64,000 nt of DNA from an uncultured Candidatus Binatia bacterium (GTDB lineage: Bacteria > Desulfobacterota > Binatia > DP-6): assembly GCA_964618895.1 (NCBI GenBank), contig CAZUDO010000063.1, positions 3,279-67,278 on the forward strand. Reading direction: 5' to 3'. The position numbers and the translations under genes are program-made. Below are positions 1,282 through 22,659 of the stretch, piece by piece. Below the pieces are notes generated by a model. It did no database searches, was not told where the DNA came from, and saw only the letters and a program-made list of their open reading frames with translations. The first letter of the stretch is position 1; every line of letters begins with the position of its first letter.

Positions 1282-1995
1282 TCAGCTCGCCACCGCCCCC
1301 GCCAGCACGATCGGCCCCGTCGGCGCCGTCGACCCGCCCTCGGGCTCGATCGACACCGCGAACGCCGTGACCTCGCCGGGTCGCGGCACCGTGTCCGCGC
1401 GCGCCGCCACCGACGGCTCTGCGCCGCCGGGGAAGAGTCCCGCCGGCTCCGGCGGACGGTCGCCGCGGATGGCCCACAGCTCGTAGACCTTGCCGGCGGG
1501 CGCGGGGCCGAAGCCGGCGAGCACCACGGCGGTCTCGCCGCTGGCGGCGTCCACCAGGACACGGCCGCTGCCGCGCCCCTCGGCCGTCGGTGCCAGCGCT
1601 GCGGTGATCGTCCGCGGCCCGGAGAGGACGCGGACCACGTGCGCCTGCACTGCCAGCGCTTCGCGCAGGCCGGCGAGCGTGCGCTGCTGCTCCTCCAGGC
1701 GGACCACCAGTTGCTGACTCTGCTCCATCAGCGCGGCCAGCTCGGTTTCGCGGGTGCCCCCGCGCGTCACCTCGCGCGCCAGGAGCCCGCCCATGGCGAG
1801 CGCCACCGTCGCGGCGAGCGCGCCCGTGAGCCGCCAGCGCCGGACCGCGCCGCTACGGGCCCGCGCCGCGGCGTCGCGCCGCGCCTGCAGCAGGAGACGC
1901 GCGCGCAGCCCCGGCCGGGGCGACGTGGCGTACGCCTCGGCCAGCGCTTCCAGGGCCGCATCGTCGAGCGCACGCTCGTCGACGCCGATGGTCAC
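1282..1995 (-). CDS. rskA: Anti-sigma-K factor RskA family (short N-terminal domain, one TM helix, coiled coil, RskA C-terminal domain)
   Basis: 'GKVYELWAIRGDRPPEPAGLF' and 'FAVSIEPEGGSTAPTGPIVLAG' motifs; directly after the sigma gene. Start GTG 1995 (or 2007) is inferred. Confidence 0.85.
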   Translation of the reverse strand: MTIGVDERALDDAALEALAEAYATSPRPGLRARLLLQARRDAAARARSGAVRRWRLTGALAATVALAMGGLLAREVTRGGTRETELAALMEQSQQLVVRLEEQQRTLAGLREALAVQAHVVRVLSGPRTITAALAPTAEGRGSGRVLVDAASGETAVVLAGFGPAPAGKVYELWAIRGDRPPEPAGLFPGGAEPSVAARADTVPRPGEVTAFAVSIEPEGGSTAPTGPIVLAGAVAS

Positions 1996-1999
1996 GTCC

Positions 2000-2599
2000 T
2001 CACGCACGCGGGTCCTCTCCGGCGAACCACGCCCGCAAGCGCAGCACGCCGTCGCGAATTCTCGTCTTGACCGTCCCCAATGGCATCTGTTCCCGGGCCG
2101 CGATCTCGCTGTGCGACAGCCCCTCGAAGTACGCAATCTCGACCGCACGGCGCTGTTCGAGCGGCAGGGTCTCCAGCCCCTCCCGTACCCGCGCTGCGCG
2201 TCTCCTCTGGTCTACGGCGTCGTCGGGGGCCTCGGATGCGACCGCCGCGCTCACGTCCGTGGTGACAGTGGTTTCCGCCCGCCGGCGCGCGCCGCGCGCC
2301 CGCTGCTGGTCGAGGGTCACGTTGCGCACGATGCGGAGGAACCACGGCCGCACCGCGCCGCGGGCGGCGTCGTACCGGTCGGCGCGGTTCCACACCCGCA
2401 GGAACGCCTCCTGGACTGCGTCCTCGGCCGCCCCCGGGTCGCCGGCGATGCGGAGTGCCAGACCGTAGGCGAGCGCACCCAGGCGATCGTACAAGGCCGC
2501 GAGCGCCCCTTCGTCACCACCCGCGACGCGCGCCAGAAGCGCCGTCTCCGACTCCGCGCCCGCGACGCGCACCAGAAGCGCCGTCTCCGACTCCGCCAT
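2000..2599 (-). CDS. ECF RNA polymerase sigma factor (SigK-like) #1
   Basis: Region 2 '[13 protein letters not shown]...[15 protein letters not shown]'; region 4 '[12 protein letters not shown]...LGTVKTRIR'. Confidence 0.93.
2213..2237 (-). promoter_or_regulatory. ATCC-N16-CCGTA motif inside the sigma #1 CDS, oriented toward rskA
   Basis: Exact match to the motif at 7608-7632 and 7673-7697. It uses A-ending codons (GCA, GTA) in a GC3-rich gene. Confidence 0.4.
2521..2596. repeat. 39-bp-period tandem duplication (2 copies) in the sigma #1 N-terminus
   Basis: ccgcgacgcgc(g/a)ccagaagcgccgtctccgactccgc at 2521-2557 and 2560-2596; encodes AESETALL(V/A)RVAG twice. Confidence 0.95.
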
Positions 2600-2611
2600 C
2601 CCGGAGGCGAC

Positions 2612-3331
2612 CTACAGGACGGCGGCCTGCACCGTGATCTCCCACGCCAGCAGCACACCGACCACGACGCTCGCCACCGCCGCACAGGCGCGCACCGCCC
2701 CGTCGGCGCGCGTGAAGCGCTCGCCGATGAGCGCCAGCGGTGCTCCCAGAAGCACGCTCATGAGCGCCATGCCGCCGATGGAGCCGAGGCCGAACAGCGC
2801 CACGTAGGCGAGCGCCAGGGTGGGCGACGGAATGCTCGCCGCCACCACCAGCATGAGCCCGGCGCTGCCCGCAAGGCCGTGCACCAGGCCGATCAGAAAC
2901 GGCCGGCGCACGTGGTGGTGCCCGGTCGCCTCGTGCCGGCGGCCCGGGACGTGCACGTGCGGATGGACGTGCAGCCGCCCGCCGTGATCGTGCGTGTGGT
3001 AGTGCACCTGGCCGCCCCGCCACAGCGACCACAGCAGGTTGGTGCCGAGCCCGATCAGCATGGCCGCCACGCCGAGCTCCAGCGTCAGCGCCACACGCGC
3101 CGGAATCTGCGCGTGCAACGCAATCATCGCCACGGCCATCAGCAGGAGCGCGGTCGTGTGCCCGAGGCCCCACACCACCCCGACCAGCGACGAGCGCCAG
3201 AGCCCGCGCCGCTGACTCAAGATGGTCGAGATCGCGGCCAGGTGATCCGCATCGAGCGCGTGCCGGATACCCAGCACGAAGCCGAACCCGAGGAGCGCCA
3301 GCGGTGTGGTTGGCATCGTCGTACTCTCCAT
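2612..3331 (-). CDS. Ni/Co transporter, NiCoT/UreH(SodT)-like membrane protein
   Basis: 'GIRHALDADH' signature, 'HGLAGS' motif, His-rich loop HYHTHDH..HVHPHVH, about 6 TM helices. ATG 3331 overlaps the upstream TGA. Confidence 0.85.
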   Translation of the reverse strand: MESTTMPTTPLALLGFGFVLGIRHALDADHLAAISTILSQRRGLWRSSLVGVVWGLGHTTALLLMAVAMIALHAQIPARVALTLELGVAAMLIGLGTNLLWSLWRGGQVHYHTHDHGGRLHVHPHVHVPGRRHEATGHHHVRRPFLIGLVHGLAGSAGLMLVVAASIPSPTLALAYVALFGLGSIGGMALMSVLLGAPLALIGERFTRADGAVRACAAVASVVVGVLLAWEITVQAAVL

Positions 3332-4734
3332 CAAACGCCGATTTGTGCAAGCGCCTGCGCCACCATGGCGAGGCCCGCGACCGAGATGACCAGCGCGCTC
3401 GCCACCGGCACGTAGCGTGCGAAACGCCCGTCGAGCGGCAGGCGCTCGAAGAAGCGGCGCGCATAGACGAGCACCAGGCCGATCCCCGTCAGCACCGCCG
3501 CCAGGCCCGCGCTGAAGGCGACGATCAGGAGCAGGCCGAAGGCGACCCGTCCGAGCGCGATGGCGCCCAGCATCACCACCAGCGCCGACGGGCACGGCAG
3601 GAGCCCGCCCGACACCCCGAGCGCGACCAGGCCCCGCCAGCCGAGCGCCCCCTCGGGCGGCAGATGGGAATGGCCGTGGGGTCCATGGTCGTGTCCGTGG
3701 TGATGGTGATGGCCGTCGCCATGATCGTGTCCATGGCCCGCGCCCACGGCCCGCAGCCGGGACGACACCAGTGACGCCCCGATCGCCACCACCAGCATGC
3801 CGGACACGACGCCGAGCCACGGGAACAACCGCTCCGGCACCACGTAGTGCGACGCCATCAGGGTCACCAGGCCGAGCGCGTACACGCCGAGCGTGTGGGT
3901 GGCCGTGACCACCAGCCCGAGCACGAGCGCGTGCCGCGCCGTCCCGCGCGCCCCCACCAGGTAGGCGCCGACGACGGTCTTGCCATGCCCCGGACTGAGT
4001 CCGTGCAGGGCGCCCAGCGCCGCCGCGATGAGCAACGACGTGAGCACCACGCCCGCGCCGAGCGGCTCGCGTGTGGCGACGAGCTGGGTCAGTCGGTCGC
4101 TGAAGCGTTCGGCGCCCACGAGCGCCGCAGCCGGCGAGCGGGCGGGTGCGTCGCTCGCGCTGCCCGTCTCCACCCGGAGGCGCGCCTCGCGCACCTGCGG
4201 TGGATTCTGGAGCCGGTCGGCGGGGTACGCCCGCAGCGCCTGGCTCTGGTCCGTACGCGGCACGGTGGACTCCGCCAGCGCGACGCCCTCGCCACCGTCG
4301 GCCACCATCTCCTGCCATCCCGGCCGTCCGACGTAGTTCCGGTCCTGCAGCACGAGCGCGCCGGCGGCGCGTCCGGCCGCACGGTACGTCAGGTCGATGC
4401 GCAGCGTCGGCAGGCCTCCGGCACCGGCCACCTGCTCCATGACGCGGGTCACGGGCAGGAGTTCGACGCGCGTCCCGTCGACAGTGAGGACGAGATGGGT
4501 CGCCAGCTCGTCTGCAACCTGGGCGAGGTACGCCTCGCGCCCGCCCGCGGCGTCGACACGGCGCTGCTCCTGGTAGGCGGGTATCTCCGCCATGTCGACT
4601 ACGTATCGGACGCTGACCGTATCCGGCGCAACGCGCAACGCGGCGTAGCGATTGACAGTGAAGTTGCCGAGCGGGTGCGCTTCCACGGCCGCGGGCAACA
4701 CGAGCAGGCAGAGCGCCAGGACGCGGGCGATCAT
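3331..4734 (-). CDS. RcnA-like Ni/Co transporter with an N-terminal secreted 'HPLGNF' domain
   Basis: Signal peptide ending AVEA then HPLGNF; 'HGLSPGHGK' and 'GLLPCPSA' motifs; poly-His loop GHGHDHGDGHHHHHGHDHGPHGHSH; ATGA overlap at 4731-4734. Confidence 0.85.
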   Translation of the reverse strand: MIARVLALCLLVLPAAVEAHPLGNFTVNRYAALRVAPDTVSVRYVVDMAEIPAYQEQRRVDAAGGREAYLAQVADELATHLVLTVDGTRVELLPVTRVMEQVAGAGGLPTLRIDLTYRAAGRAAGALVLQDRNYVGRPGWQEMVADGGEGVALAESTVPRTDQSQALRAYPADRLQNPPQVREARLRVETGSASDAPARSPAAALVGAERFSDRLTQLVATREPLGAGVVLTSLLIAAALGALHGLSPGHGKTVVGAYLVGARGTARHALVLGLVVTATHTLGVYALGLVTLMASHYVVPERLFPWLGVVSGMLVVAIGASLVSSRLRAVGAGHGHDHGDGHHHHHGHDHGPHGHSHLPPEGALGWRGLVALGVSGGLLPCPSALVVMLGAIALGRVAFGLLLIVAFSAGLAAVLTGIGLVLVYARRFFERLPLDGRFARYVPVASALVISVAGLAMVAQALAQIGV

Positions 4735-6035
4735 CGGACCTCCTGTGCGAGCGCCAGACGAGGCTCGGGTGCGAGCGTCGCCAGCACAGTGCAGGCGACG
4801 GGCGCCTGGCGCAGGTCGAAGTACGGATTGATGGCGAGCGCGCGCGCCAGGTGCCGGGCGGCGCGCCGGTCGCGGCCGTGCCCCGCGGCGATCATGCCGG
4901 CGTGAAAGTGCAGCAGCGCGTCCTCGGTGCCGAGGCGAAGCGCCCGATGGGCCGCCCGCATGGCGGCGGCGTGCTGGCCGTTCTTGTAGAGCGCCCAGGC
5001 GAGCGCGTCGTCGGTGTAGATGTCGCCGCGGGTGGTCGCCTCCTGGCGGGCGAGGCGGAGCGCCTCGGGCAGGCGGCGGTCGTGGTCGGCGTAGAACAGC
5101 GCCAGCTGGCGGCCGTAGGTCGAGCCGGCGGCCTCGGCGACCCGGCCCATGTACTCGACCAGCGCGTACTGCGCTTCGGCGTCGGCCATCCGGCCGGCCG
5201 CGGCGTGCACGTCCCCCAGGGCCGCCACCATATCCGGAGCCGGCAGCTGCGCCACGGCGCGCGCGTACAGGGCCGCCGACTCGTCGAGCATGCCCTCGGC
5301 CGCACGCACACGCGCCAGGCCGGCCAGTGCCGGCGGATAGTCGGGGACGAGGTCGCGGGCGGCCGCGTACGCCTGCCCAGCCGGTGCGAGCGCGCCGGCG
5401 GCGAAGTGCTCGTGGCCGAGGTGGACGAGCGTCCAGGCGAGGCTCTCGGGATCGCGCGGGCTGCCGGCCCGGACGGCGGCCGCGAGCAGCTCGAGCGCCC
5501 CCTCGCGGTCGCCGAACAGCGAGCGCAGGAATGCGACCCGCGTGTACGCCGGCAGGCCCGGGCGCAGGTCGAGCAGACGCTGCGCCACGTCGACGGCGCG
5601 GTCGTAATCGCCGAGCTCGACGTAGGCGTCGGTGAGGGTGGCGTAGTTCCACCAATCGCGCGGCTCGCGCGCCCGCGCCGCCGCCGCCACCGCCTCTGCG
5701 CCGCGGAAGTCGTGCTGGCCGAGCAGCACCCACGCCCGCGTGCGCTCAGCCTCGTAGTGCGCCGGATCGAGCGCCAGCGCGTGCTCGACCGCCGCCATCG
5801 CCCGCCCGTAGTAGGCGGGATCCCCCGTTTCGCGCGCCTTCTGCATGAAGGCCGTGGCCAGGGTCACGTAGTGCTCGGGACGGTTCTCGCCCAGACGACG
5901 CTCGGCGGCCTCCAACGCCTGGTCGGCGCGCGACGGCGCCGCCGATGCGGGGGACCCGGGCACGAGGCCGGCGAGCGCCAGCACGAAGGCCAGCGCCCGG
6001 CCGGGTTTCCGTACGAGGTGCACGGACGCGGTCAC
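4731..6035 (-). CDS. Secreted tetratricopeptide repeat protein
   Basis: Signal peptide, 'KARETGDPAYYGRA', multiple TPR units; GTGA overlap with the DUF4331 stop. Confidence 0.85.
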   Translation of the reverse strand: MTASVHLVRKPGRALAFVLALAGLVPGSPASAAPSRADQALEAAERRLGENRPEHYVTLATAFMQKARETGDPAYYGRAMAAVEHALALDPAHYEAERTRAWVLLGQHDFRGAEAVAAAARAREPRDWWNYATLTDAYVELGDYDRAVDVAQRLLDLRPGLPAYTRVAFLRSLFGDREGALELLAAAVRAGSPRDPESLAWTLVHLGHEHFAAGALAPAGQAYAAARDLVPDYPPALAGLARVRAAEGMLDESAALYARAVAQLPAPDMVAALGDVHAAAGRMADAEAQYALVEYMGRVAEAAGSTYGRQLALFYADHDRRLPEALRLARQEATTRGDIYTDDALAWALYKNGQHAAAMRAAHRALRLGTEDALLHFHAGMIAAGHGRDRRAARHLARALAINPYFDLRQAPVACTVLATLAPEPRLALAQEVR

Positions 6036-7549
6036 TCGCCCGGATCTCGATGCCGGCGATCGCGCCCGTCGAACGGGGTGGGAAGGAACGGGAACTCGGC
6101 GGTGATGCCCTGCTCCTGAACACCGACACCGTCGCCGACGTAGTTCTGGAAATACGGCTCGCCGCCGGCGACGCGGACCACCAGGTCGGTCACGTCGTCG
6201 TTCGGCCGCCGGCCATTGGGGAAACCGGCCGGATCGGGGGTGGCGTTGCCGGCCGCATCGTGGGCGAAAGGCCCCAGGCGCTTGACGTTGGCGGCCAGAG
6301 TGGGTGGCGTCAGCAGGTTCAGGCGGAGCAGCTCGGAGTACCGCCCGTCGTTCACATCCTGATCCGCGTACTGGAGGAGCAGATGCACCACGTCGTTCCG
6401 GTCGCCCTTGGGGACCGGGACGCCGGACACCGCCTCGAGCGCGCCGGCCACGTCGAGGCGGCGGTAGAAGCGCAGGAACACGCTCTCGTCCTCCGGCTCG
6501 GTGGCGTTCCACAGGTCCTTGCTCCCGATCGCGATGATGAGCTCGTTCACCAACGGGTTCGCCATGCGCGACACCTGGATGAACTTCTTCTCGCCGCTCA
6601 GGAGCTCGCGCGGCGGCTTCCTCGGGTTGATCTTGGGCGCGCCGCGGCGGACGGTCTCCCGCTGTCGCATGGTGCTGGCGTACATGCCGATGGTGCCGGT
6701 GGCCTCGGTCGGCGCCTTGCCGTCGACGGTGAGGCGGGTCACCGGGATCTCGATCGCGATGGTGTTGATGTTGAAGCCACTGAAGTTGTTGACGCCGAAG
6801 GGGTTCGCGGTGTCGGCTGCGTCCTCGGCGGCGCTCTGCGCGGGCAGCCCGCGCCGGAGGTTCAGCGTATCGAAGACGGCGCCCAGGTCGATGGCGAAGG
6901 TCTCCGCGCGCTGGCCGGCGAAGACCCGGACGCCGGTCGCGTCGTCGGTGTAGATGCCCTGGCTGGCGAGTTGCGGGTAGTTCGGCATGGTGCGCGGGCC
7001 GATGTTGGAGGGGACGGTGAGCATCTTCTTGCCGCCGAACAGCTCGGTGCGGTCGCACTTCCGTCCGTCTTTCCGGCAGTTTCGGACTTCGGTCACGGTG
7101 AAGCGCTGCTTCCGGGCCAGGCCGGGGGCGTCGAGGCGGTCGATCGGCGGCAGCGGCCCGCCGCCGAGCGTGGCCAGGAACTGGTCGGGGTTCTCGGTCT
7201 CGGTCTGGAACGCGAACTCGTAGTTGATGTCGTCGGCCGCGCCGTCGCGGTTGTGGTCGACGTGGAGGACATAGAGGACGTGGTCGTCGAAGGCGAAGTA
7301 GTTGGGGCCGGAGCCCGGCTCCTGTCCGGGCACCACGTTCATGATGAAAGCTACGCGACGCTCGGCGAGCGGGCGCGCCACGTTGGCGGCGTCGTAGCTC
7401 ACGAAGGCGTACACGTCGGTGATGTCCGCGCCCGGGTCGAGGGTCATGAGGGGCGCTTCGCGATGACTGGCCGCGCCTGCCGGGGTCGTCCCGAGCGTGA
7501 GGGCCAGCCCGGCCGCGGCCAGGCCGCGGCAGAGTCTCGTCGTCTGCAT
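6032..7549 (-). CDS. DUF4331 family secreted protein
   Basis: 'ASHREAP', 'ADITDVYAF', 'QVSRMANPLVNE', 'GFPNGRRPNDDVTD'; SD AGGA upstream of ATG 7549. Confidence 0.9.
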   Translation of the reverse strand: MQTTRLCRGLAAAGLALTLGTTPAGAASHREAPLMTLDPGADITDVYAFVSYDAANVARPLAERRVAFIMNVVPGQEPGSGPNYFAFDDHVLYVLHVDHNRDGAADDINYEFAFQTETENPDQFLATLGGGPLPPIDRLDAPGLARKQRFTVTEVRNCRKDGRKCDRTELFGGKKMLTVPSNIGPRTMPNYPQLASQGIYTDDATGVRVFAGQRAETFAIDLGAVFDTLNLRRGLPAQSAAEDAADTANPFGVNNFSGFNINTIAIEIPVTRLTVDGKAPTEATGTIGMYASTMRQRETVRRGAPKINPRKPPRELLSGEKKFIQVSRMANPLVNELIIAIGSKDLWNATEPEDESVFLRFYRRLDVAGALEAVSGVPVPKGDRNDVVHLLLQYADQDVNDGRYSELLRLNLLTPPTLAANVKRLGPFAHDAAGNATPDPAGFPNGRRPNDDVTDLVVRVAGGEPYFQNYVGDGVGVQEQGITAEFPFLPTPFDGRDRRHRDPGE

Positions 7550-7607
7550 GGGTTCTCTTCCTTTCGTCCGTTGCCGGTTGCTGCGGGGCGCCCGCGTCAC
7601 AGGACCC

Positions 7608-7632
7608 TACGGAGGCAGAGGCGCCGGTGGAT
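7608..7632 (-). promoter_or_regulatory. Putative ECF promoter ATCC-N16-CCGTA for the DUF4331 operon
   Basis: Intergenic; reverse complement reads cATCCaccggcgcctctgcctCCGTAg. Confidence 0.65.
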
Positions 7633-7671
7633 GTCGCACCTGAGGGGGGTGCGTGCTACGAGCGCGCCAGA

Positions 7672-7697
7672 GATCCAGACGACGGGTCCCGCCCGTA
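7672..7697 (+). promoter_or_regulatory. Putative ECF promoter GATCC-N16-CCGTA for sigma #2
   Basis: gATCCagacgacgggtcccgcCCGTAc; followed by SD GAGGA (7708-7712) and GTG 7723. Confidence 0.65.
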
Positions 7698-7722
7698 CAT
7701 GCCTCCAGAGGAAGAGCATCCC

Positions 7723-8322
7723 GTGCCGTCGGCACACAGCCTGGCAGCCGTTCCACCCCGTCGGGAGGACCTCGGCGACCTGATCAGCCGCACGGCCCGG
7801 GGAGAGGAGTCCGCCCTGGCAGCCTTGTATGATCTCACCGCCGCACAGGTGAACGGCTTGGCGCTCCGCATCCTGAACGACCGGGGCGCGGCCGAGGAAG
7901 TGACCGGCGACGTGTACCTGCAGGTCTGGCGCCAGGCGGCACACTACGACGCCGACCGCGGCACGCCGCTCGCCTGGCTGCTCACGATCACGCGCAGCCG
8001 CGCCATCGACCGCCTGCGCAGTGGCGCCACGCAGCGCGCGCACACGGCACCGCTGCGGGCGGCCATCGCCTTGCCGTCGGCCGCGCCGGGGCCCGAGGAC
8101 GAGTCGCATCTCAGCCAGCGCCGGCGCTTCGTGCAGCAGGCGCTGGTGCAGCTGCCCGCCGAGCAGCGCCGCGCCATCGAGCTGGCCTACTTCGGCGGGC
8201 AGAGCCATAGTGAGATCGCGGCCACGCTCGGCGAGCCGCTCGGCACCGTGAAGACGCGCGTCCGCCTCGGCATGCGGCGGCTGCGCGACGCGCTCGGCGC
8301 CGCCGGGAAGGACGCCTTCTGA
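7723..8322 (+). CDS. ECF RNA polymerase sigma factor (SigK-like) #2
   Basis: 'AAEEVTGDVYLQVWRQAAHYDADRG..AWLLTITRSRAIDRLR', 'AYFGGQSHSEIA..LGTVKTRVR'. Start chosen from SD and promoter position; the ORF is open from 7627. Confidence 0.92.
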   Translation: MPSAHSLAAVPPRREDLGDLISRTARGEESALAALYDLTAAQVNGLALRILNDRGAAEEVTGDVYLQVWRQAAHYDADRGTPLAWLLTITRSRAIDRLRSGATQRAHTAPLRAAIALPSAAPGPEDESHLSQRRRFVQQALVQLPAEQRRAIELAYFGGQSHSEIAATLGEPLGTVKTRVRLGMRRLRDALGAAGKDAF

Positions 8323-8894
8323 TGCACACCACACTCACCGAACCCCTGCGCGAGCGCGCGGCCCTGTACGCCCTGGACGCCCTGGCGCCGGGCGAGCGTC
8401 ACGAATTCGAGCAGCATCTGGCCGGCGGGTGCGCGGTGTGTGCGTCCGAAGTGGACTCGCTCAGCGCGGTGGCGGGCAATCTCGCGCTGGCGGCCGAGCC
8501 GGTCGCACCCTCGCCCGCCGTGCGCGCCCGGGTGCTCGCCGAGGCCACGCGCCCGCAGCAGGCCACGGCCGATGCCTTCCCGCTCGTGCTGCAGGACGAG
8601 GGCACGTGGACCGAGATCGCCGCCGGCGCGCACCGCAAGATGCTCCTCGGCACGGAGACCCGGGGCGCCCTCAGCTACCTCATCCGCATGCAGCCGCGCG
8701 CGCGCGTGGGCCGGCACGTCCACGATTCGATCGAGCACTGCTACGTCGTCTCCGGCGACGCGTACATCAACGGGCGGCATCTGTTCGCCGGCGACTTCAC
8801 GGCGGCCCTCGTCGGCAGCACGCACGACGAGAGCACCACCGACGGCGGCTGCGTCCTCCTGCTCGTCGAGAGCCGGCCCGGGTTCTCGGCGTAG
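8322..8894 (+). CDS. Zinc-binding anti-sigma factor with a C-terminal ChrR-like cupin domain
   Basis: 'FEQHLAGGCAVC' ZAS-like motif; cupin 'HVHDSIEHCYVVSG' and 'GSTH'; TGATG coupling to sigma #2. Confidence 0.85.
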   Translation: MHTTLTEPLRERAALYALDALAPGERHEFEQHLAGGCAVCASEVDSLSAVAGNLALAAEPVAPSPAVRARVLAEATRPQQATADAFPLVLQDEGTWTEIAAGAHRKMLLGTETRGALSYLIRMQPRARVGRHVHDSIEHCYVVSGDAYINGRHLFAGDFTAALVGSTHDESTTDGGCVLLLVESRPGFSA

Positions 8895-8920
8895 GGGTTA
8901 CCGCCGCCGACTGCCGGCGA

Positions 8921-8945
8921 GATCCGGCGACGCCGGGCGTCCGTA
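8921..8945 (+). promoter_or_regulatory. Putative ECF promoter GATCC-N15-CCGTA for the ferritin-like gene
   Basis: Intergenic; ends 7 nt before GTG 8953, consistent with a leaderless transcript. Confidence 0.55.
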
Positions 8946-8952
8946 GTCGTCG

Positions 8953-9789
8953 GTGATGGACGGCTTCGATCTCGACAGCTACGTGGCGCGCTCCCGGGCA
9001 CTCGATCTGACCGGGATCCACTGGGAGGCGGTGCCGGACCATCCGCTGCCGCCGGAGGCACTGCGGACGCTCCGCTACATGCAGGACATCGAGAGCCACA
9101 CCGTCATCTACCTCCGTACGCTGCTGGCGACGCGCGCGGTGGACGATCCCGAGGTGGCGACGTTCTTCGCCTGCTGGCTGTACGAGGAGACTTCTCACGG
9201 CCGGGCGCTGGCGCGCTTCCTCGCCGCGGCGGGGGCGGCCATTGTCACGCGACCGCGGTCGCAGGTAAGCGTCGGGCAGCGGCTGGAAGCGGCCGCCACC
9301 GCGCTGCTCGCCAAGGCATGGCCCGACTTCGTGGCCGTGCACATGACCTGGGGCGCCATCAACGAGCTCACCACCTTGACCGGATACCGGAGGCTGGCCG
9401 CGGTGGCTGGCCATCCGGTGCTGACCGAGCTGCTGGGCCGCATCATGCGCGACGAGTCCCGGCATTTTCTCTTCTACTTCCACCAGGCCCGCGCCCGGCT
9501 GGCGCGGCCGCGCACCGCCCGGCTGGCGCGGCTGCTCGTCGATCGTTTCTGGGCGCCGGTCGGCAGTGGCGTGCAGCCGGCCGGGGAGACGCGCGCGCTG
9601 GCGCGCTACCTGTTCGACGGCACCGACGGCCGGGCGGCGGCGCGCAAGGTGGATGCGACCATTCGCGAGCTGCCGGGGTTCCAGGACGTACCGCTCCTCG
9701 ACGCCTGGATCGAGCGCGCGGTCCACGGCGGCCGCCCGCCGAGACCGCGGGCTCAGAACCGCCAGCTGAGCCCCGCCCGTACGCGATAG
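8953..9789 (+). CDS. Ferritin-like diiron-carboxylate protein (acyl-ACP desaturase-like)
   Basis: Four-helix ligand pattern: 'IESH', 'YEETSHG' (ExxH), 'INELTT', 'RDESRH' (ExxH). Confidence 0.8.
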   Translation: MMDGFDLDSYVARSRALDLTGIHWEAVPDHPLPPEALRTLRYMQDIESHTVIYLRTLLATRAVDDPEVATFFACWLYEETSHGRALARFLAAAGAAIVTRPRSQVSVGQRLEAAATALLAKAWPDFVAVHMTWGAINELTTLTGYRRLAAVAGHPVLTELLGRIMRDESRHFLFYFHQARARLARPRTARLARLLVDRFWAPVGSGVQPAGETRALARYLFDGTDGRAAARKVDATIRELPGFQDVPLLDAWIERAVHGGRPPRPRAQNRQLSPARTR

Positions 9790-19935: not shown

Positions 19936-20439
19936 GTGCACGATTGGCGACTGCCGCGCCAGCTCGAGGCCGACGCCCGCGCCGGTGCCATCCGGGCCGT
20001 CCTGGCGGAGCGCACGCGGACGCTCTGGCCGGGCGGCACCCTCCAGGTCCCCGTGCTGGCGCTGTCCGCACCGCTCGTGGCCGCGCTCCGCGCCGCTATG
20101 GGGCGCAGCCGGCTCCATCGTGGCCTCGAGGCGGCCGTCGCCGCCCTCGACGCCGAGCGCCGGGGACTCGCCGTCACGGCCCGGCGGTCGGGGCGCGTCG
20201 CCGGCGAGCGCATCTCGCGCCTCTGCCTGGTCGCCGACGACGGCGCGGAGCGCTTCTACCGGCAGGTGGAGCGCTGCCTCGCCGACAACGCCCCGCGGAT
20301 CGCGGGCTGCCTGCTCACGGTCGACAGCACCACGCTCGGGACCACGCTCTACGGCCGGGACGCGGCGGTGAAGCTGGTGCTCGTCGACCACAAGGACGCG
20401 GTGGTGGACGTGCTGCGGTCGCTGGCGGACACGGGGTGA
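19936..20439 (+). CDS. Hypothetical protein with a probable L7Ae/L30e-like RNA-binding fold
   Basis: 'GLEAAVAAL...RLCLVADDG.ERF...VDSTTLG..LYGRDAAVKLVLVDH'; TATACT at 19889-19894 upstream. Start uncertain (19900 or 19936). Confidence 0.65.
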   Translation: MHDWRLPRQLEADARAGAIRAVLAERTRTLWPGGTLQVPVLALSAPLVAALRAAMGRSRLHRGLEAAVAALDAERRGLAVTARRSGRVAGERISRLCLVADDGAERFYRQVERCLADNAPRIAGCLLTVDSTTLGTTLYGRDAAVKLVLVDHKDAVVDVLRSLADTG

Positions 20440-22348
20440 CCCGGCCCGCCGGGGCGCGTCGCAACGGCGCTCTGGCGCGCAGCGCGTCGAGGCGGCTGCG
20501 CAACGCGTCCTGGACGCCGGCCGTGGTCGGGTCGCTCGCCCGGTTGTCGAGTTCGTAGGGGTCGTTCACCAGATCGTAGAGCTCGACCACGCCGGCGGTG
20601 TTCGGGTACGTGATGTACTTCCACTGCTCGGTCCGCACGCCCGCGTAGCTGGTCACGTCGGGATAGGTGTGTTCGAGCAGCAGATCGGTCCGCCACGCGA
20701 CCGGCTCGTCCTGCAGGAGCGGCACCAGGCTGCGCCCCTGCACGGAGGTCGGGATGGGGAGCCCGGCCAGCTGGGCGATGGTGGGCGCCAGGTCGATGTT
20801 CATGGCGAGGGCCGGCTCGTCCCGTACCGTGCGCACGACCCGTGGCCAGCGCACGACGAGCGGGATGCGAATGCTCTCTTCGTAGGCGGGCCCCTTGCTC
20901 CAGAAGTACCGGTGCTCGCCCCAGAAGTGACCGTTGTCCGACAGGAAGATGACCACCGTGTCGTCGCTCACGCCGCTCACCTCGAGCGCCGACATGATGC
21001 TGTCGACCGCCTCGTCCACGGCCAGGAGGGTCGTGATCTGGCGGGTGCCGATGACGTCGGACCAGCCACCATAGGTGAGGAACCCCTGCAACACATCCCA
21101 CGCGCGCGGAAGCTCCTGGATCCAGGTGGGCTTGTCCGCCACGTCCGCCTCGTTCCAGCTGGGCGCCCGCACGGCCGGGGGTGGTCCCACCGCCGCCAGG
21201 TGACGGGGCGCCGGGATCGGCGGCCCACCGCCTTCCTGGTGCGGGCCCTGCAGTCCGACGAGCAGGAAGAACGGCTGGCCGCGAGCGGCCAAAATGAAGT
21301 CCACCGCCTTCGCAGCGAGCACGTCCGTCGAATAGTCCGTCGCCGCGGTGCCGTAGCTGACCAGCGTCCCCTGCTCGACCAGCTGGTAATCGTAGTAGCG
21401 GGGAAGGACGAAGCCGTGCCACTCGTCCCACCCGGGGGGTACGTAGCAGCCCGTGCCGGTCGGCGGGCACTGCGGCAGGTAGTGGTTGCCGTACTTGCCG
21501 TACATGCCGGTCCGGTATCCCGCGGCCCGCAACCCGGTGGCGAGCGTCGGCCGGGATCCCGCCACGAACGGGATGCCGCCGCCGTTCGGCAGGTTGTTCA
21601 GCACGCGGTGCCGGTGCGCGTACTGCCCGGTCAAGATGCTCGCCCGCGCCGGCGCGCACGTCGGCGTGGGCGCGAAGGCGTTCGAGAAGGTCACGCCCTG
21701 CGCGCCGAGCCGGTCGAGCACGTGCGGCATGCCGGACAACGTGTCCCAGCGTTGGTCGTCGCTCAGGATGATGACGACGTTCGGACGCCCGCTGTCCCGA
21801 CACGCCAACGCCACGAAAGGACTCGGCCGGCACTCGCTGATCACGTCGACCAACGCTCGCGTCGCCACCGTGAGCTGGACGGTCACCGGACCCTCCGGCG
21901 GGCCGTCGTCCGTCGCCGGAAACTCCAGCCGCCGCATCCGCACGCGCAGCCGGGCCGCCCCGGAGGCGCCGGCGGGGGCGAGCACGGCGAGCACGGTGCG
22001 CGCCGGATTCGCGCACACGATGCGGAGCCCGTTCCGAACGCAGCCCTCGAGCACGGCCTGCGCGCGGAACACCCCGGCATCGCGCACCTGGAGCGATACG
22101 CTACCCGCCAGCAGCGCCTGCTCCGCCCCGACCACCTCGTCGGCCCGCACCGTGGTGCTGAGCGAGACGTACCCCGTCGCAACGGCGGTGACGCCTGCCG
22201 GGCGCAGCAGGACGCGTATCACGTCGAACGGTCGGGCGGCCCCCGCGGGGGAGCCCGTCGCCCAGACGATCACGCCGGCGAGGGCCGGAAGCCCCCGCAC
22301 GACGCGCCAGCCCGCGCCGCGCGTCAGACCCCTGGCAATCGACGGCAT
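20315..22348 (-). CDS. Secreted formylglycine-dependent sulfatase with an extra N-terminal beta domain
   Basis: 'PNVVIILSDDQR', 'CAPARAS' (CxPxR), 'GMYGKY', 'FLSDNG', 'YEESIRIP', 'ELYDL..DPYE'. Confidence 0.9.
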   Translation of the reverse strand: MPSIARGLTRGAGWRVVRGLPALAGVIVWATGSPAGAARPFDVIRVLLRPAGVTAVATGYVSLSTTVRADEVVGAEQALLAGSVSLQVRDAGVFRAQAVLEGCVRNGLRIVCANPARTVLAVLAPAGASGAARLRVRMRRLEFPATDDGPPEGPVTVQLTVATRALVDVISECRPSPFVALACRDSGRPNVVIILSDDQRWDTLSGMPHVLDRLGAQGVTFSNAFAPTPTCAPARASILTGQYAHRHRVLNNLPNGGGIPFVAGSRPTLATGLRAAGYRTGMYGKYGNHYLPQCPPTGTGCYVPPGWDEWHGFVLPRYYDYQLVEQGTLVSYGTAATDYSTDVLAAKAVDFILAARGQPFFLLVGLQGPHQEGGGPPIPAPRHLAAVGPPPAVRAPSWNEADVADKPTWIQELPRAWDVLQGFLTYGGWSDVIGTRQITTLLAVDEAVDSIMSALEVSGVSDDTVVIFLSDNGHFWGEHRYFWSKGPAYEESIRIPLVVRWPRVVRTVRDEPALAMNIDLAPTIAQLAGLPIPTSVQGRSLVPLLQDEPVAWRTDLLLEHTYPDVTSYAGVRTEQWKYITYPNTAGVVELYDLVNDPYELDNRASDPTTAGVQDALRSRLDALRARAPLRRAPAGRVTPCPPATAARPPPRPCGRRAPASPPRPGRRAWSRAWCCRP

Positions 22349-22563
22349 CCCGCCTGTCCTGCGCGAGCACTATGCGAGAGGCGGGACCACGTCAAGTGCT
22401 TTCAAGCATGAGGGTGTAGAAAGCACACTTGTTTCCGCCGCGGCCCGCTAGCCGAGCACGCTCCGTACCAGCACGTCGCTCGACGTCCCCAGCGCCAGCG
22501 CCGCCCCGATGGGGCTTGCCTCCGGCCGCTCACCTCTGCCACAAGGCGCACGCACGCCTGCGG

Positions 22564-22659
22564 GGAGAAGGATGGGGCCCGGTGGCCCCACCGGTCTTCA
22601 AAACCGCGTTGTCCCTCCTTGCGGGGGACGGAAGGTTCGACTCCTTCCCTTCTCCGCCA
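22564..22659 (+). tRNA. selC: tRNA-Sec (UCA)
   Basis: 8-bp acceptor GGAGAAGG/CCTTCTCC, 6-bp D stem GGGGCC/GGCCCC, anticodon loop CTTCAAA, long variable arm, 5-bp T stem GAAGG/CCTTC with loop TTCGACT, encoded G-CCA. Confidence 0.97.

Follow-up and report, generated by a model that had tools for sequence, protein, structure and literature searches.

Six tightly coupled genes on the minus strand of a 64,000-nt stretch of high-GC DNA (~72%; hereafter the window) from contig CAZUDO010000063.1 of an uncultured Candidatus Binatia bacterium appear to specify an envelope system built around a secreted protein of the DUF4331 family. With a confidence that we place a little above even, we read the whole as a module, controlled by extracytoplasmic function (ECF) sigma factors, that captures and probably imports a trace metal of the Cu(II)/Ni(II) class. 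According to the model proposed here, DUF4331 would be exported and cut by signal peptidase, which would leave a free Ala-Ser-His end forming a site of the amino-terminal Cu(II)- and Ni(II)-binding (ATCUN) type that chelates Cu(II) or Ni(II). DUF4331 would work with a co-translated periplasmic partner, a TPR protein, and the metal would be handed to a head domain that begins with a histidine (His1), resembles the heads of the recently described anglerases and is tethered to a permease of the RcnA/NicO type. This permease, together with a small subunit encoded by the next gene, would move the metal across the inner membrane, the outer-membrane step being taken in some relatives by a TonB-dependent receptor. 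Expression would start from an ECF promoter, ATCCR-N14-18-CCGTA, probably read by two paralogous sigma factors, and a soluble ChrR-type (cupin) anti-sigma factor and a membrane-bound RskA-type one may make it responsive to signals from the cytoplasm and the envelope alike.

The operon spans positions 1282-7549 (Table 1), as seen from open reading frame (ORF) calls and a reading of the sequence. The DUF4331 and TPR genes share a GTGA overlap, through which the TPR gene is predicted to be translationally coupled to DUF4331, and both encode proteins with signal peptides. The TPR gene and the third gene (gene 3) are joined by an ATGA overlap with AGGAGG upstream, genes 3 and 4 by a TGATG overlap, and 12 nt separate gene 4 from the sigma factor gene. 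The sigma and rskA genes overlap by 8 nt if the GTG at 2007 starts rskA, and are separated by a short gap if the GTG at 1995 does. A simple scan found no terminator 3' of rskA, and the remaining genes of the window are housekeeping genes unrelated to the module. An earlier, preliminary description of this DNA had listed the same six coupled genes with these coordinates and junctions, and our reading of the sequence together with Pfam and NCBIfam bears it out; the motifs it quoted (HPLGNF, HGLSPGHGK, GGLLPCP and RHALDADH) and the His-rich loops of both membrane proteins are all present. Its gene content stands, but it overlooked a second, divergent pair of ECF sigma and ChrR-type anti-sigma genes (7699-8894, plus strand), the promoter motifs and the N-terminal histidine features.

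Gene neighbourhoods were compared at 80 loci from species-representative genomes, each with a DUF4331 relative at 48-69% identity and ranked by similarity to the query. The neighbouring ORFs were clustered without presupposed families, and adjacency was counted in loci with enough flanking DNA. Two architectures dominate. The first, that of the window, consists of DUF4331, the TPR protein and an RcnA-like protein with an HPLGNF head, while the second combines DUF4331, a TPR protein of a second subfamily and a protein of ~390 aa whose C-terminal half belongs to HupE/UreJ-2 (PF13795; the HupE2 type below). A His1-headed permease lies at most 3 kb from DUF4331 in 38 of 41 loci (24 of the HupE/UreJ-2 type and 14 of the HPLGNF-RcnA type), and a TPR gene adjoins DUF4331 in 43 of 55. 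The exact gene order of the window, including both sigma/anti-sigma pairs, was also found on a 384-kb metagenome contig whose genes had been called independently. The arrangement is not a product of chance, because the order is identical on this independent contig and dozens of species share the core.

A more divergent branch of DUF4331 proteins from soil metagenomes, at 40-50% identity to its own query, again has TPR as its commonest neighbour (33 loci); HPLGNF-RcnA proteins turn up there as well, and some loci of the branch carry DUF4331 with a sigma/anti-sigma pair only. The TPR protein, which is thus found next to DUF4331 in this branch and, as a second subfamily, in HupE2-type loci, may be a co-translated periplasmic partner of DUF4331 that serves as scaffold or chaperone. 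The module recurs across many bacterial phyla, and the trio of DUF4331, TPR protein and His1-headed permease is deeply conserved. A check proposed in the preliminary description, co-occurrence of DUF4331 with these transporters across genomes, gave a positive outcome by these counts, and its view of a real operon that ties DUF4331 and TPR to membrane proteins of the NicO superfamily under ECF control is supported. Methane-, ammonia- or nitrite-oxidising lineages account for 25 of the 80 best loci, a figure tallied from record titles in a similarity-ranked list and to be taken as a hint only.

The head of the gene 3 protein may link the module to a known kind of metal capture. A signal peptide is followed by a predicted mature His1 (VEA/HPLGNF, the slash marking the cleavage site here and below), an Ig-like beta-sandwich head (~residues 20-190) and a membrane part with six RcnA/NicO-type transmembrane helices, in which a His-rich loop is predicted to face the cytoplasm. 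His1 is invariant in 61 homologs and 16 copies from the loci, and the motifs H-P-x-G-N and D-x-A-E-x-P are invariant too. In the structure predicted by AlphaFold2 (AF2) from the alignment of 61 sequences, the head is a beta-sandwich with helices after strand 2, at a per-residue confidence score (pLDDT) >90; the membrane part was modelled less well. Anglerases, described in 2025, are His1-bearing Ig-like heads (Ang-1 and Ang-2) tethered to HupE/UreJ-2 permeases. Ang-1 binds Cu2+ at 74 nM and Ni2+ at 220 nM, Ang-2 binds Cu2+ at 62 nM, and the head is proposed to fish metal ions and feed them to the permease (PMC12537917). The top Foldseek match of the gene 3 head among 350,542 PDB chains is 9GCE (E 2.9e-4, probability 1.00, 156 columns), which is the crystal structure of copper-bound Ang-1 (PMC12537917). 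The head also matches the Zn-binding ZrgA of Vibrio cholerae (8EZW; probability 0.98, template-modelling score (TM) 0.48). The HupE2-type partners likewise show a signal peptide and then a histidine (...A/HKPSDSYL or ...A/HPISQG).

By its predicted fold and by His1, the HPLGNF head is anglerase-like, yet it is a separate sequence family. The secreted HPLGNF domain pointed out in the preliminary description is therefore present but not novel in kind, given its top match to 9GCE. New in comparison with the anglerase paper is the combination with an RcnA/NicO body, as heads of this type were previously known only on HupE/UreJ-2 permeases (PMC12537917). A literature search for later anglerase work, and for HupE-type genes in papers on nitrifiers and methanotrophs, returned nothing usable. 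At one locus (L051, 3182-4330, plus strand) a hybrid protein carries an HPLGN-type head on a HupE/UreJ-2-type membrane body; because of this hybrid, head and body can be regarded as modular, swapping between permease classes. An acidic EF-hand-like loop (GLDxNxDGxITWGEL; DxDGDGxxDxxE) was seen at a similar position after strand 2 in both head types, for example in the HupE2-type protein of L005 (5073-6140) and in the HPLGNF heads of L001, L002 and L007. It may form a second cation site, possibly for Ca2+.

The membrane parts of genes 3 and 4 had been labelled as an RcnA exporter and a NiCoT importer, respectively. In both cases this is resemblance and not membership. RcnA (NF007454) is the best NCBIfam match of gene 3, at 101.2 bits against a cutoff of 195 and with the best stretch confined to residues 237-357, and the match to NicO (PF03824) is marginal (29.2 bits, cutoff 27.7). 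Gene 4 has the HX4DH signature (RHALDADH; KHATEIDH in L101) and also matches NicO marginally, at 35.2 bits for the same cutoff of 27.7. For TIGR00802, the HoxN/HupN/NixA NiCoT family, it scores 34.8 bits against a cutoff of 333, over profile positions 4-69 of 281, and with 239 aa it is short for a family of full-length eight-helix architecture. At locus L101 (10950-13304, plus strand) a single ORF of 785 aa fuses an HPLGNF-RcnA protein in frame to a small NicO protein, with residues 25-517 matching gene 3 and residues 546-750 matching gene 4, at 45% identity each. Because of this Rosetta-stone fusion, genes 3 and 4 are better understood as acting as one permease than as an opposed exporter and importer, and gene 4 is probably a partner subunit of gene 3. 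Gene 4 accompanies about half of the HPLGNF-type loci and is absent from all HupE2-type loci.

These results bear on the mechanism favoured in the preliminary description, a Ni/Co metallation machine in which the RcnA-like protein exports nickel or cobalt, the head and TPR protein load a DUF4331 metalloprotein and the NiCoT-like protein brings the metal in. Both genes score far below the family cutoffs, the L101 fusion fits one permease better, and the distribution of gene 4 given above is also unfavourable to such a machine. Even so, the membrane domains match Ni/Co families only (RcnA at 101 bits, NicO and RHALDADH), both carry His-rich loops, the alternative architecture contains relatives of HupE/UreJ, ATCUN motifs and Ang-1 bind Ni(II) too, and the very high conservation of DUF4331 would suit a metalloenzyme client. 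Together with the evidence on metal and direction presented below, we judge this explanation unlikely.

The DUF4331 protein itself matches PF14224 at 315.8 bits (27-bit cutoff) over profile positions 2-421 of 421. The family has 3,917 representatives after clustering at 50% identity (E <= 1e-3), and >150 positions are invariant among 26 sequences at 63-79% identity to the protein of the window. Its signal peptide ends in AGA and the predicted mature N-terminus reads Ala-Ser-His-Arg-Glu-Ala-Pro, with ASHREAP invariant. In 84 DUF4331 copies, the residue five positions before the histidine is small (A/V/S/T/G) in 79, the one four positions before it is bulky and variable, and the one three positions before it is A, G or S in 82; since these -5/-4/-3 residues match the -3/-1 pattern of signal peptidase, the mature protein is predicted to start with Ala-Ser-His. 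Most relatives at 34-46% identity show A-x-A/[AS]-S-H-R-E-A-P, with His3 kept. A histidine at position 3 of a free N-terminus constitutes an ATCUN motif, a tight chelator of Cu(II) and Ni(II). Such a site calls for a free N-terminal amine, His3 and any residue but Pro at position 2; in sequence, the mature end of DUF4331 predicted from an inferred cleavage site looks like this pattern (X-X-His), and its His3 is family-wide. Other members of the family have C-terminal additions, namely the surface-display or anchor domains SLH, RTX or FlgD-Ig, as well as cupredoxin, alpha-carbonic anhydrase (one, P0284) and CHRD (one, P0278), and these are consistent with an extracytoplasmic and often surface-exposed protein. 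Because relatives carry cell-surface anchors, DUF4331 would be suited to a capture role.

As to which metal is handled, the resemblance of the membrane domains to Ni/Co transporter families only speaks for nickel or cobalt, whereas several observations speak for copper. Cu(II) is the best ligand of ATCUN motifs and Co(II) a poor one. Both characterised Ang heads prefer Cu2+, an amicyanin-like cupredoxin (C-x2-H-x2-M) and a helical repeat protein, c23, precede DUF4331 behind the same promoter motif at 7 loci, and one DUF4331-cupredoxin fusion exists in the family. The metal would accordingly belong to the Cu(II)/Ni(II) class, with copper no less likely than nickel and cobalt behind both, and the fold match of the modelled head to ZrgA makes zinc a further possible candidate. 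The Ni/Co specificity of the preliminary description is hence not supported, the ATCUN-type end, the cupredoxin partners and fusion and the Ang data making Cu(II) at least as likely. For the metallation machine in particular, the cupredoxin partners and fusion point away to copper, Co(II) is a poor ATCUN ligand, and a search with Rfam in the window and 8 loci found no riboswitches, the B12 and NiCo classes included.

The loci with cupredoxin and c23 are L030, L042, L047 and L070-L073, and extra copies of both occur at L127. The c23 proteins are secreted proteins or lipoproteins with one or two helical repeats of ~170 aa (LWRKHIGF.VDYT...DPLA..I.KQFP); they have no match in Pfam or NCBIfam and always follow the amicyanin-like cupredoxin, whose own mature N-terminus is often His. 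A P1B-type ATPase was considered as a clue to the metal and dropped, as it was found on one contig only. It is encoded just upstream of sigma-ChrR-DUF4331 in a metagenome-assembled genome (MAG) of Methylomagnum (L082/L025, 5489-7453, plus strand), has a TPCP motif in the metal-binding helix of a heavy-metal ATPase, and is P1B-5-like.

Uptake is favoured as the direction of transport, with moderate confidence, because TonB-dependent receptors, which serve import only, are operonic or co-regulated with the module. In alphaproteobacterial loci they lie 3' of it on the same strand, and in L006 and L007 they carry the promoter motif themselves. Uptake is also suited by a capture head and a surface-displayed partner, and the predicted cytoplasmic His-rich loop of gene 3 is compatible with either direction. 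The same receptors, in operon or regulon, argue against metallation of DUF4331 by way of export as assumed in the metallation machine. They likewise speak against a metal-stress or resistance module comparable to CnrYXH, in which an ECF system would sense periplasmic excess, the RcnA-type protein would efflux the metal, and DUF4331, the TPR protein and the head would sequester or buffer it. Such a module would draw on the exporter function of RcnA, whose motifs and probably whose cytoplasmic His-rich loop are found in gene 3, and on the precedent of the E. coli rcnA operon, which encodes the periplasmic accessory protein RcnB. There is moreover a published link between ECF groups with RskA-like anti-sigma factors and heavy-metal stress, and efflux of Ni/Co is under the control of CnrH (PMC7826278). 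Against it, a tethered capture head has been described as feeding the permease from outside, DUF4331 is surface-displayed in other lineages, which suits capture, and much of the sampled distribution consists of environmental lineages (methane, ammonia and nitrite oxidisers and Binatia). None of these lineages is known to specialise in metal resistance. We regard the resistance module as improbable.

It is possible to extend the idea of capture and import to the family at large. DUF4331 proteins, which form ~3,900 clusters at 50% identity, would then make up a large and so far unrecognised class of "protein metallophores", either secreted or displayed on the surface. They would bind Cu(II), or Ni(II), through their ATCUN-type end, feed His1-headed permeases with the help of TPR proteins and be expressed from an ECF regulon of their own. 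This generalisation is tentative, and we would rather doubt than expect that it holds.

The cupredoxins also allow a different interpretation, namely that DUF4331 is an extracytoplasmic redox enzyme with a cupredoxin as electron partner, expressed in an oxidative or envelope-stress regulon, for which the permease supplies or recycles a metal cofactor. The conservation of DUF4331 is enzyme-like, cupredoxin occurs both in the operon and as a fusion, and a diiron-protein ORF lies behind the same promoter motif in the window. The regulators are of the ChrR and the SigK/RskA type; ChrR acts in the singlet-oxygen response of Rhodobacter, and the SigK/RskA type is redox-sensitive in M. tuberculosis. 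However, cupredoxin is present in just 7 of the 80 loci, the diiron and cytochrome c genes of the window are not conserved with the module (the diiron ORF recurs only as a fragment, in L024), the sigma factor of the window does not have the redox-sensing Cys pair, and neither a catalytic motif nor a fold relative was found for DUF4331. A redox enzyme is in our estimate improbable.

Control by ECF sigma factors, as stated in the preliminary description, is retained, but in place of its single envelope-sensing pair there are two paralogous sigma factors with different anti-sigma factors and a common promoter motif. The motif, ATCCR-N14-18-CCGTA, was derived in this analysis and not taken from the published consensus of ECF18/19 or ECF11. 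Four copies occur in the window, against 0.56 expected for 64 kb, and all lie within 2213-8945. The motif precedes DUF4331 or the first operon gene in 25 of the 80 loci, and across these loci its density is 1.11/kb upstream of the first operon gene against 0.013/kb elsewhere. The divergent copy in front of the second sigma gene, with counterparts in L002, L006 and L042, suggests autoregulation. The copy inside the operon sigma gene, which has an equivalent in L024 (11399-11424), is a candidate internal promoter that could uncouple expression of the anti-sigma factor from that of the sigma factor. The position of the fourth copy suggests that the diiron ORF at 8953-9789 may be a leaderless member of the regulon.

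The operon sigma factor resembles SigK (NF007228) at 148 bits, below the cutoff of 226, and contains no cysteine, so that the Cys pair of SigK is missing. It adjoins an anti-sigma factor with an RskA_C domain (PF10099, 74 bits; NF052375, 94 bits against a cutoff of 100). The ChrR-type protein matches Cupin_7 (PF12973) at 51.5 bits and, below threshold, PF22618 (26.4 against 27) and zf-HC2 (18.4 against 22.2), and a simple hydropathy scan gave no transmembrane segment. The two sigma factors are paralogs, whereas their anti-sigma partners are unrelated to each other. Relatives of the divergent sigma factor adjoin DUF4331 in 38 of the 80 loci, including Nitrospirales, and ChrR-type relatives occur in 25-28 loci. 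By its distribution (25-38 loci), the sigma/ChrR-type pair is the more general regulator of the module, and the sigma/RskA pair is specific to the subgroup of the window.

Table 1. Genes and promoter motif copies of the DUF4331 module and its divergent neighbour in the 64,000-nt window
Feature	Position	Strand	Remarks
RskA-like membrane anti-sigma factor	1282..2007	-	241 aa; extracytoplasmic RskA_C domain
ECF sigma factor, SigK-like	2000..2599	-	199 aa; Sigma70_r2/r4 matches
Promoter motif copy	2213..2237	-	inside operon sigma gene, in the sigma2-sigma4 linker, ~205 nt upstream of rskA
Gene 4, small NicO-type membrane protein	2612..3331	-	239 aa; NicO 35 bits, RHALDADH
Gene 3, head-plus-permease RcnA-like protein	3331..4734	-	467 aa; NicO 29 bits
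TPR protein	4731..6035	-	434 aa, secreted; TPR Pfam matches
DUF4331	6032..7549	-	505 aa, secreted; Pfam PF14224 at 316 bits
Promoter motif ATCCA-N15-CCGTA(G)	7608..7632	-	~58 nt upstream of DUF4331 start codon
Divergent promoter copy ATCCAG-N14-CCGTA	7673..7697	+	ends just before ATG of divergent sigma gene
Second, divergent ECF sigma factor	7699..8322	+	47% identical to operon sigma
Soluble ChrR-type anti-sigma factor	8322..8894	+	zf-HC2/RskA_N-like N-terminus and Cupin_7
Fourth promoter motif copy	8922..8945	+	ends 7 nt before GTG of ORF 8953-9789
Diiron/FA_desaturase_2-like ORF	8953..9789	+	Pfam 23.6 bits

Several points weigh against capture and import of a Cu(II)/Ni(II)-class metal. The part assigned to DUF4331 is inferred from its genomic context and one N-terminal motif. 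Identity of ~50% across phyla and many invariant polar residues would be less usual in a simple metal shuttle than in an enzyme. A sequence search gave no relative of DUF4331 in the PDB and its AF2 model (pLDDT 60, predicted TM (pTM) 0.69) no meaningful Foldseek match, so that no fold inference was drawn, and its most conserved segments are those that AF2 modelled least confidently. Regarding the head, the fold match to 9GCE is moderate (TM(target) 0.42, 14% identity), sequence profiles of both classes of headed permeases (A2 and A3) miss 9GCE at E up to 10, and the alignment between the HPLGNF and HupE2-type heads is in register but weak (hhalign E 0.005, probability 7%; suggestive only). In the divergent branch a recognisable permease was found in only 5 of 13 well-flanked loci. 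Attempts to place the TonB-dependent receptors in a copper, B12 or siderophore subfamily had no success, and neither a riboswitch (searched for in the window and 8 loci) nor a metal-specific regulator points to the metal. The membrane domains resemble Ni/Co families that include the exporter RcnA, and direction and metal could differ from those proposed. Finally, a literature search for DUF4331, PF14224 and IPR025566 met with no mention in paper texts and with no experiment or expression data on any DUF4331 protein; the family is counted just twice, in the supplementary neighbour table of the anglerase paper (PMC12537917).

In our assessment the preliminary description was right about a conserved extracytoplasmic metal system with DUF4331 at its centre; its split into exporter and importer, its Ni/Co specificity and its one ECF switch are not supported in that form. 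DUF4331, a large cross-phylum family, now has a testable context as part of a metal-capture/permease module with regulators of its own. The anglerase idea is extended by a second permease superfamily, two further obligatory extracytoplasmic partners and an ECF promoter of recognisable sequence. Should copper be the metal, the module would bear on the supply of copper to key enzymes of methane and ammonia oxidisers and of Binatia; if it is nickel, it would constitute a new high-affinity nickel route. Should DUF4331 proteins indeed be metallophores, they would define a widespread pathway of trace-metal acquisition, possibly a main copper route in methane, ammonia and nitrite oxidisers and in Binatia. 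Culturable carriers are Methyloglobulus morosus KoM1 and Nitrosomonas sp. Nm51 and Nm166.

Two observations concern other genes. The window contains a tRNA-Sec at 22564-22655 (plus strand, 73.7 bits), and the organism probably makes selenoproteins; a sulfatase-family protein is encoded nearby (20315-22369, minus strand). In six Nitrospirales loci a conserved ORF of ~218 aa (c26) lies 3' of the HupE2 gene (e.g. L037, 13892-14542, and L057, 13916-14569), with a weak match to the FAD-SLDH small-subunit family (E 0.003) as its sole hit.

Among known systems, the anglerase-HupE/UreJ-2 proteins come closest. They share a signal peptide followed by His1, an Ig-like head in which helices are inserted behind strand 2, and a linker that ties it to a metal permease of several helices, and in 24 related loci the partner of DUF4331 is itself a headed HupE/UreJ-2 protein. 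In contrast to them, the body in the window is of the RcnA/NicO type, the head has no detectable sequence similarity to Ang-1, and the DUF4331 and TPR partners and an ECF regulon are not described for anglerases (PMC12537917). The new elements are thus the DUF4331/TPR partnership, the ATCUN feature, the RcnA-type body and the regulon, while the class of head was already published in 2025.

The gene 3 protein has in common with E. coli RcnA the HxxxPGHGK and PC(P/S) motifs and a central His-rich loop, and a periplasmic accessory is encoded alongside in both cases (RcnB in E. coli). It differs in scoring below the family cutoff and in its N-terminal capture head, which RcnA does not have, and the operon is under ECF sigma factors and not RcnR, in a context that suggests uptake. 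In CopC/CopD copper uptake, a periplasmic beta-sandwich whose N-terminal His binds Cu(II) forms a pair, or a single fused protein, with an importer of the inner membrane. The anglerase paper names CopC as a copper protein with an N-terminal His (PMC12537917). There is, however, no sequence relation, the membrane superfamily is another one, and CopCD comes without DUF4331 or TPR. ZrgA of V. cholerae has a similar fold to the head, and PA4063 of P. aeruginosa was hit by the A2 profile, at a non-significant E of 6.8; unlike the head, both are free-standing proteins of Zur-regulated zinc uptake of the ATP-binding cassette (ABC) type, with neither a permease tether nor His1. Lastly, CnrYXH and FecIR resemble the module in placing a dedicated ECF sigma factor and an envelope-spanning anti-sigma factor over a metal transport operon, and TonB-dependent receptors occur in some relatives. 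The anti-sigma factors of the window are of the RskA and ChrR types and not CnrY/CnrX or FecR, and two paralogous sigma factors are present.

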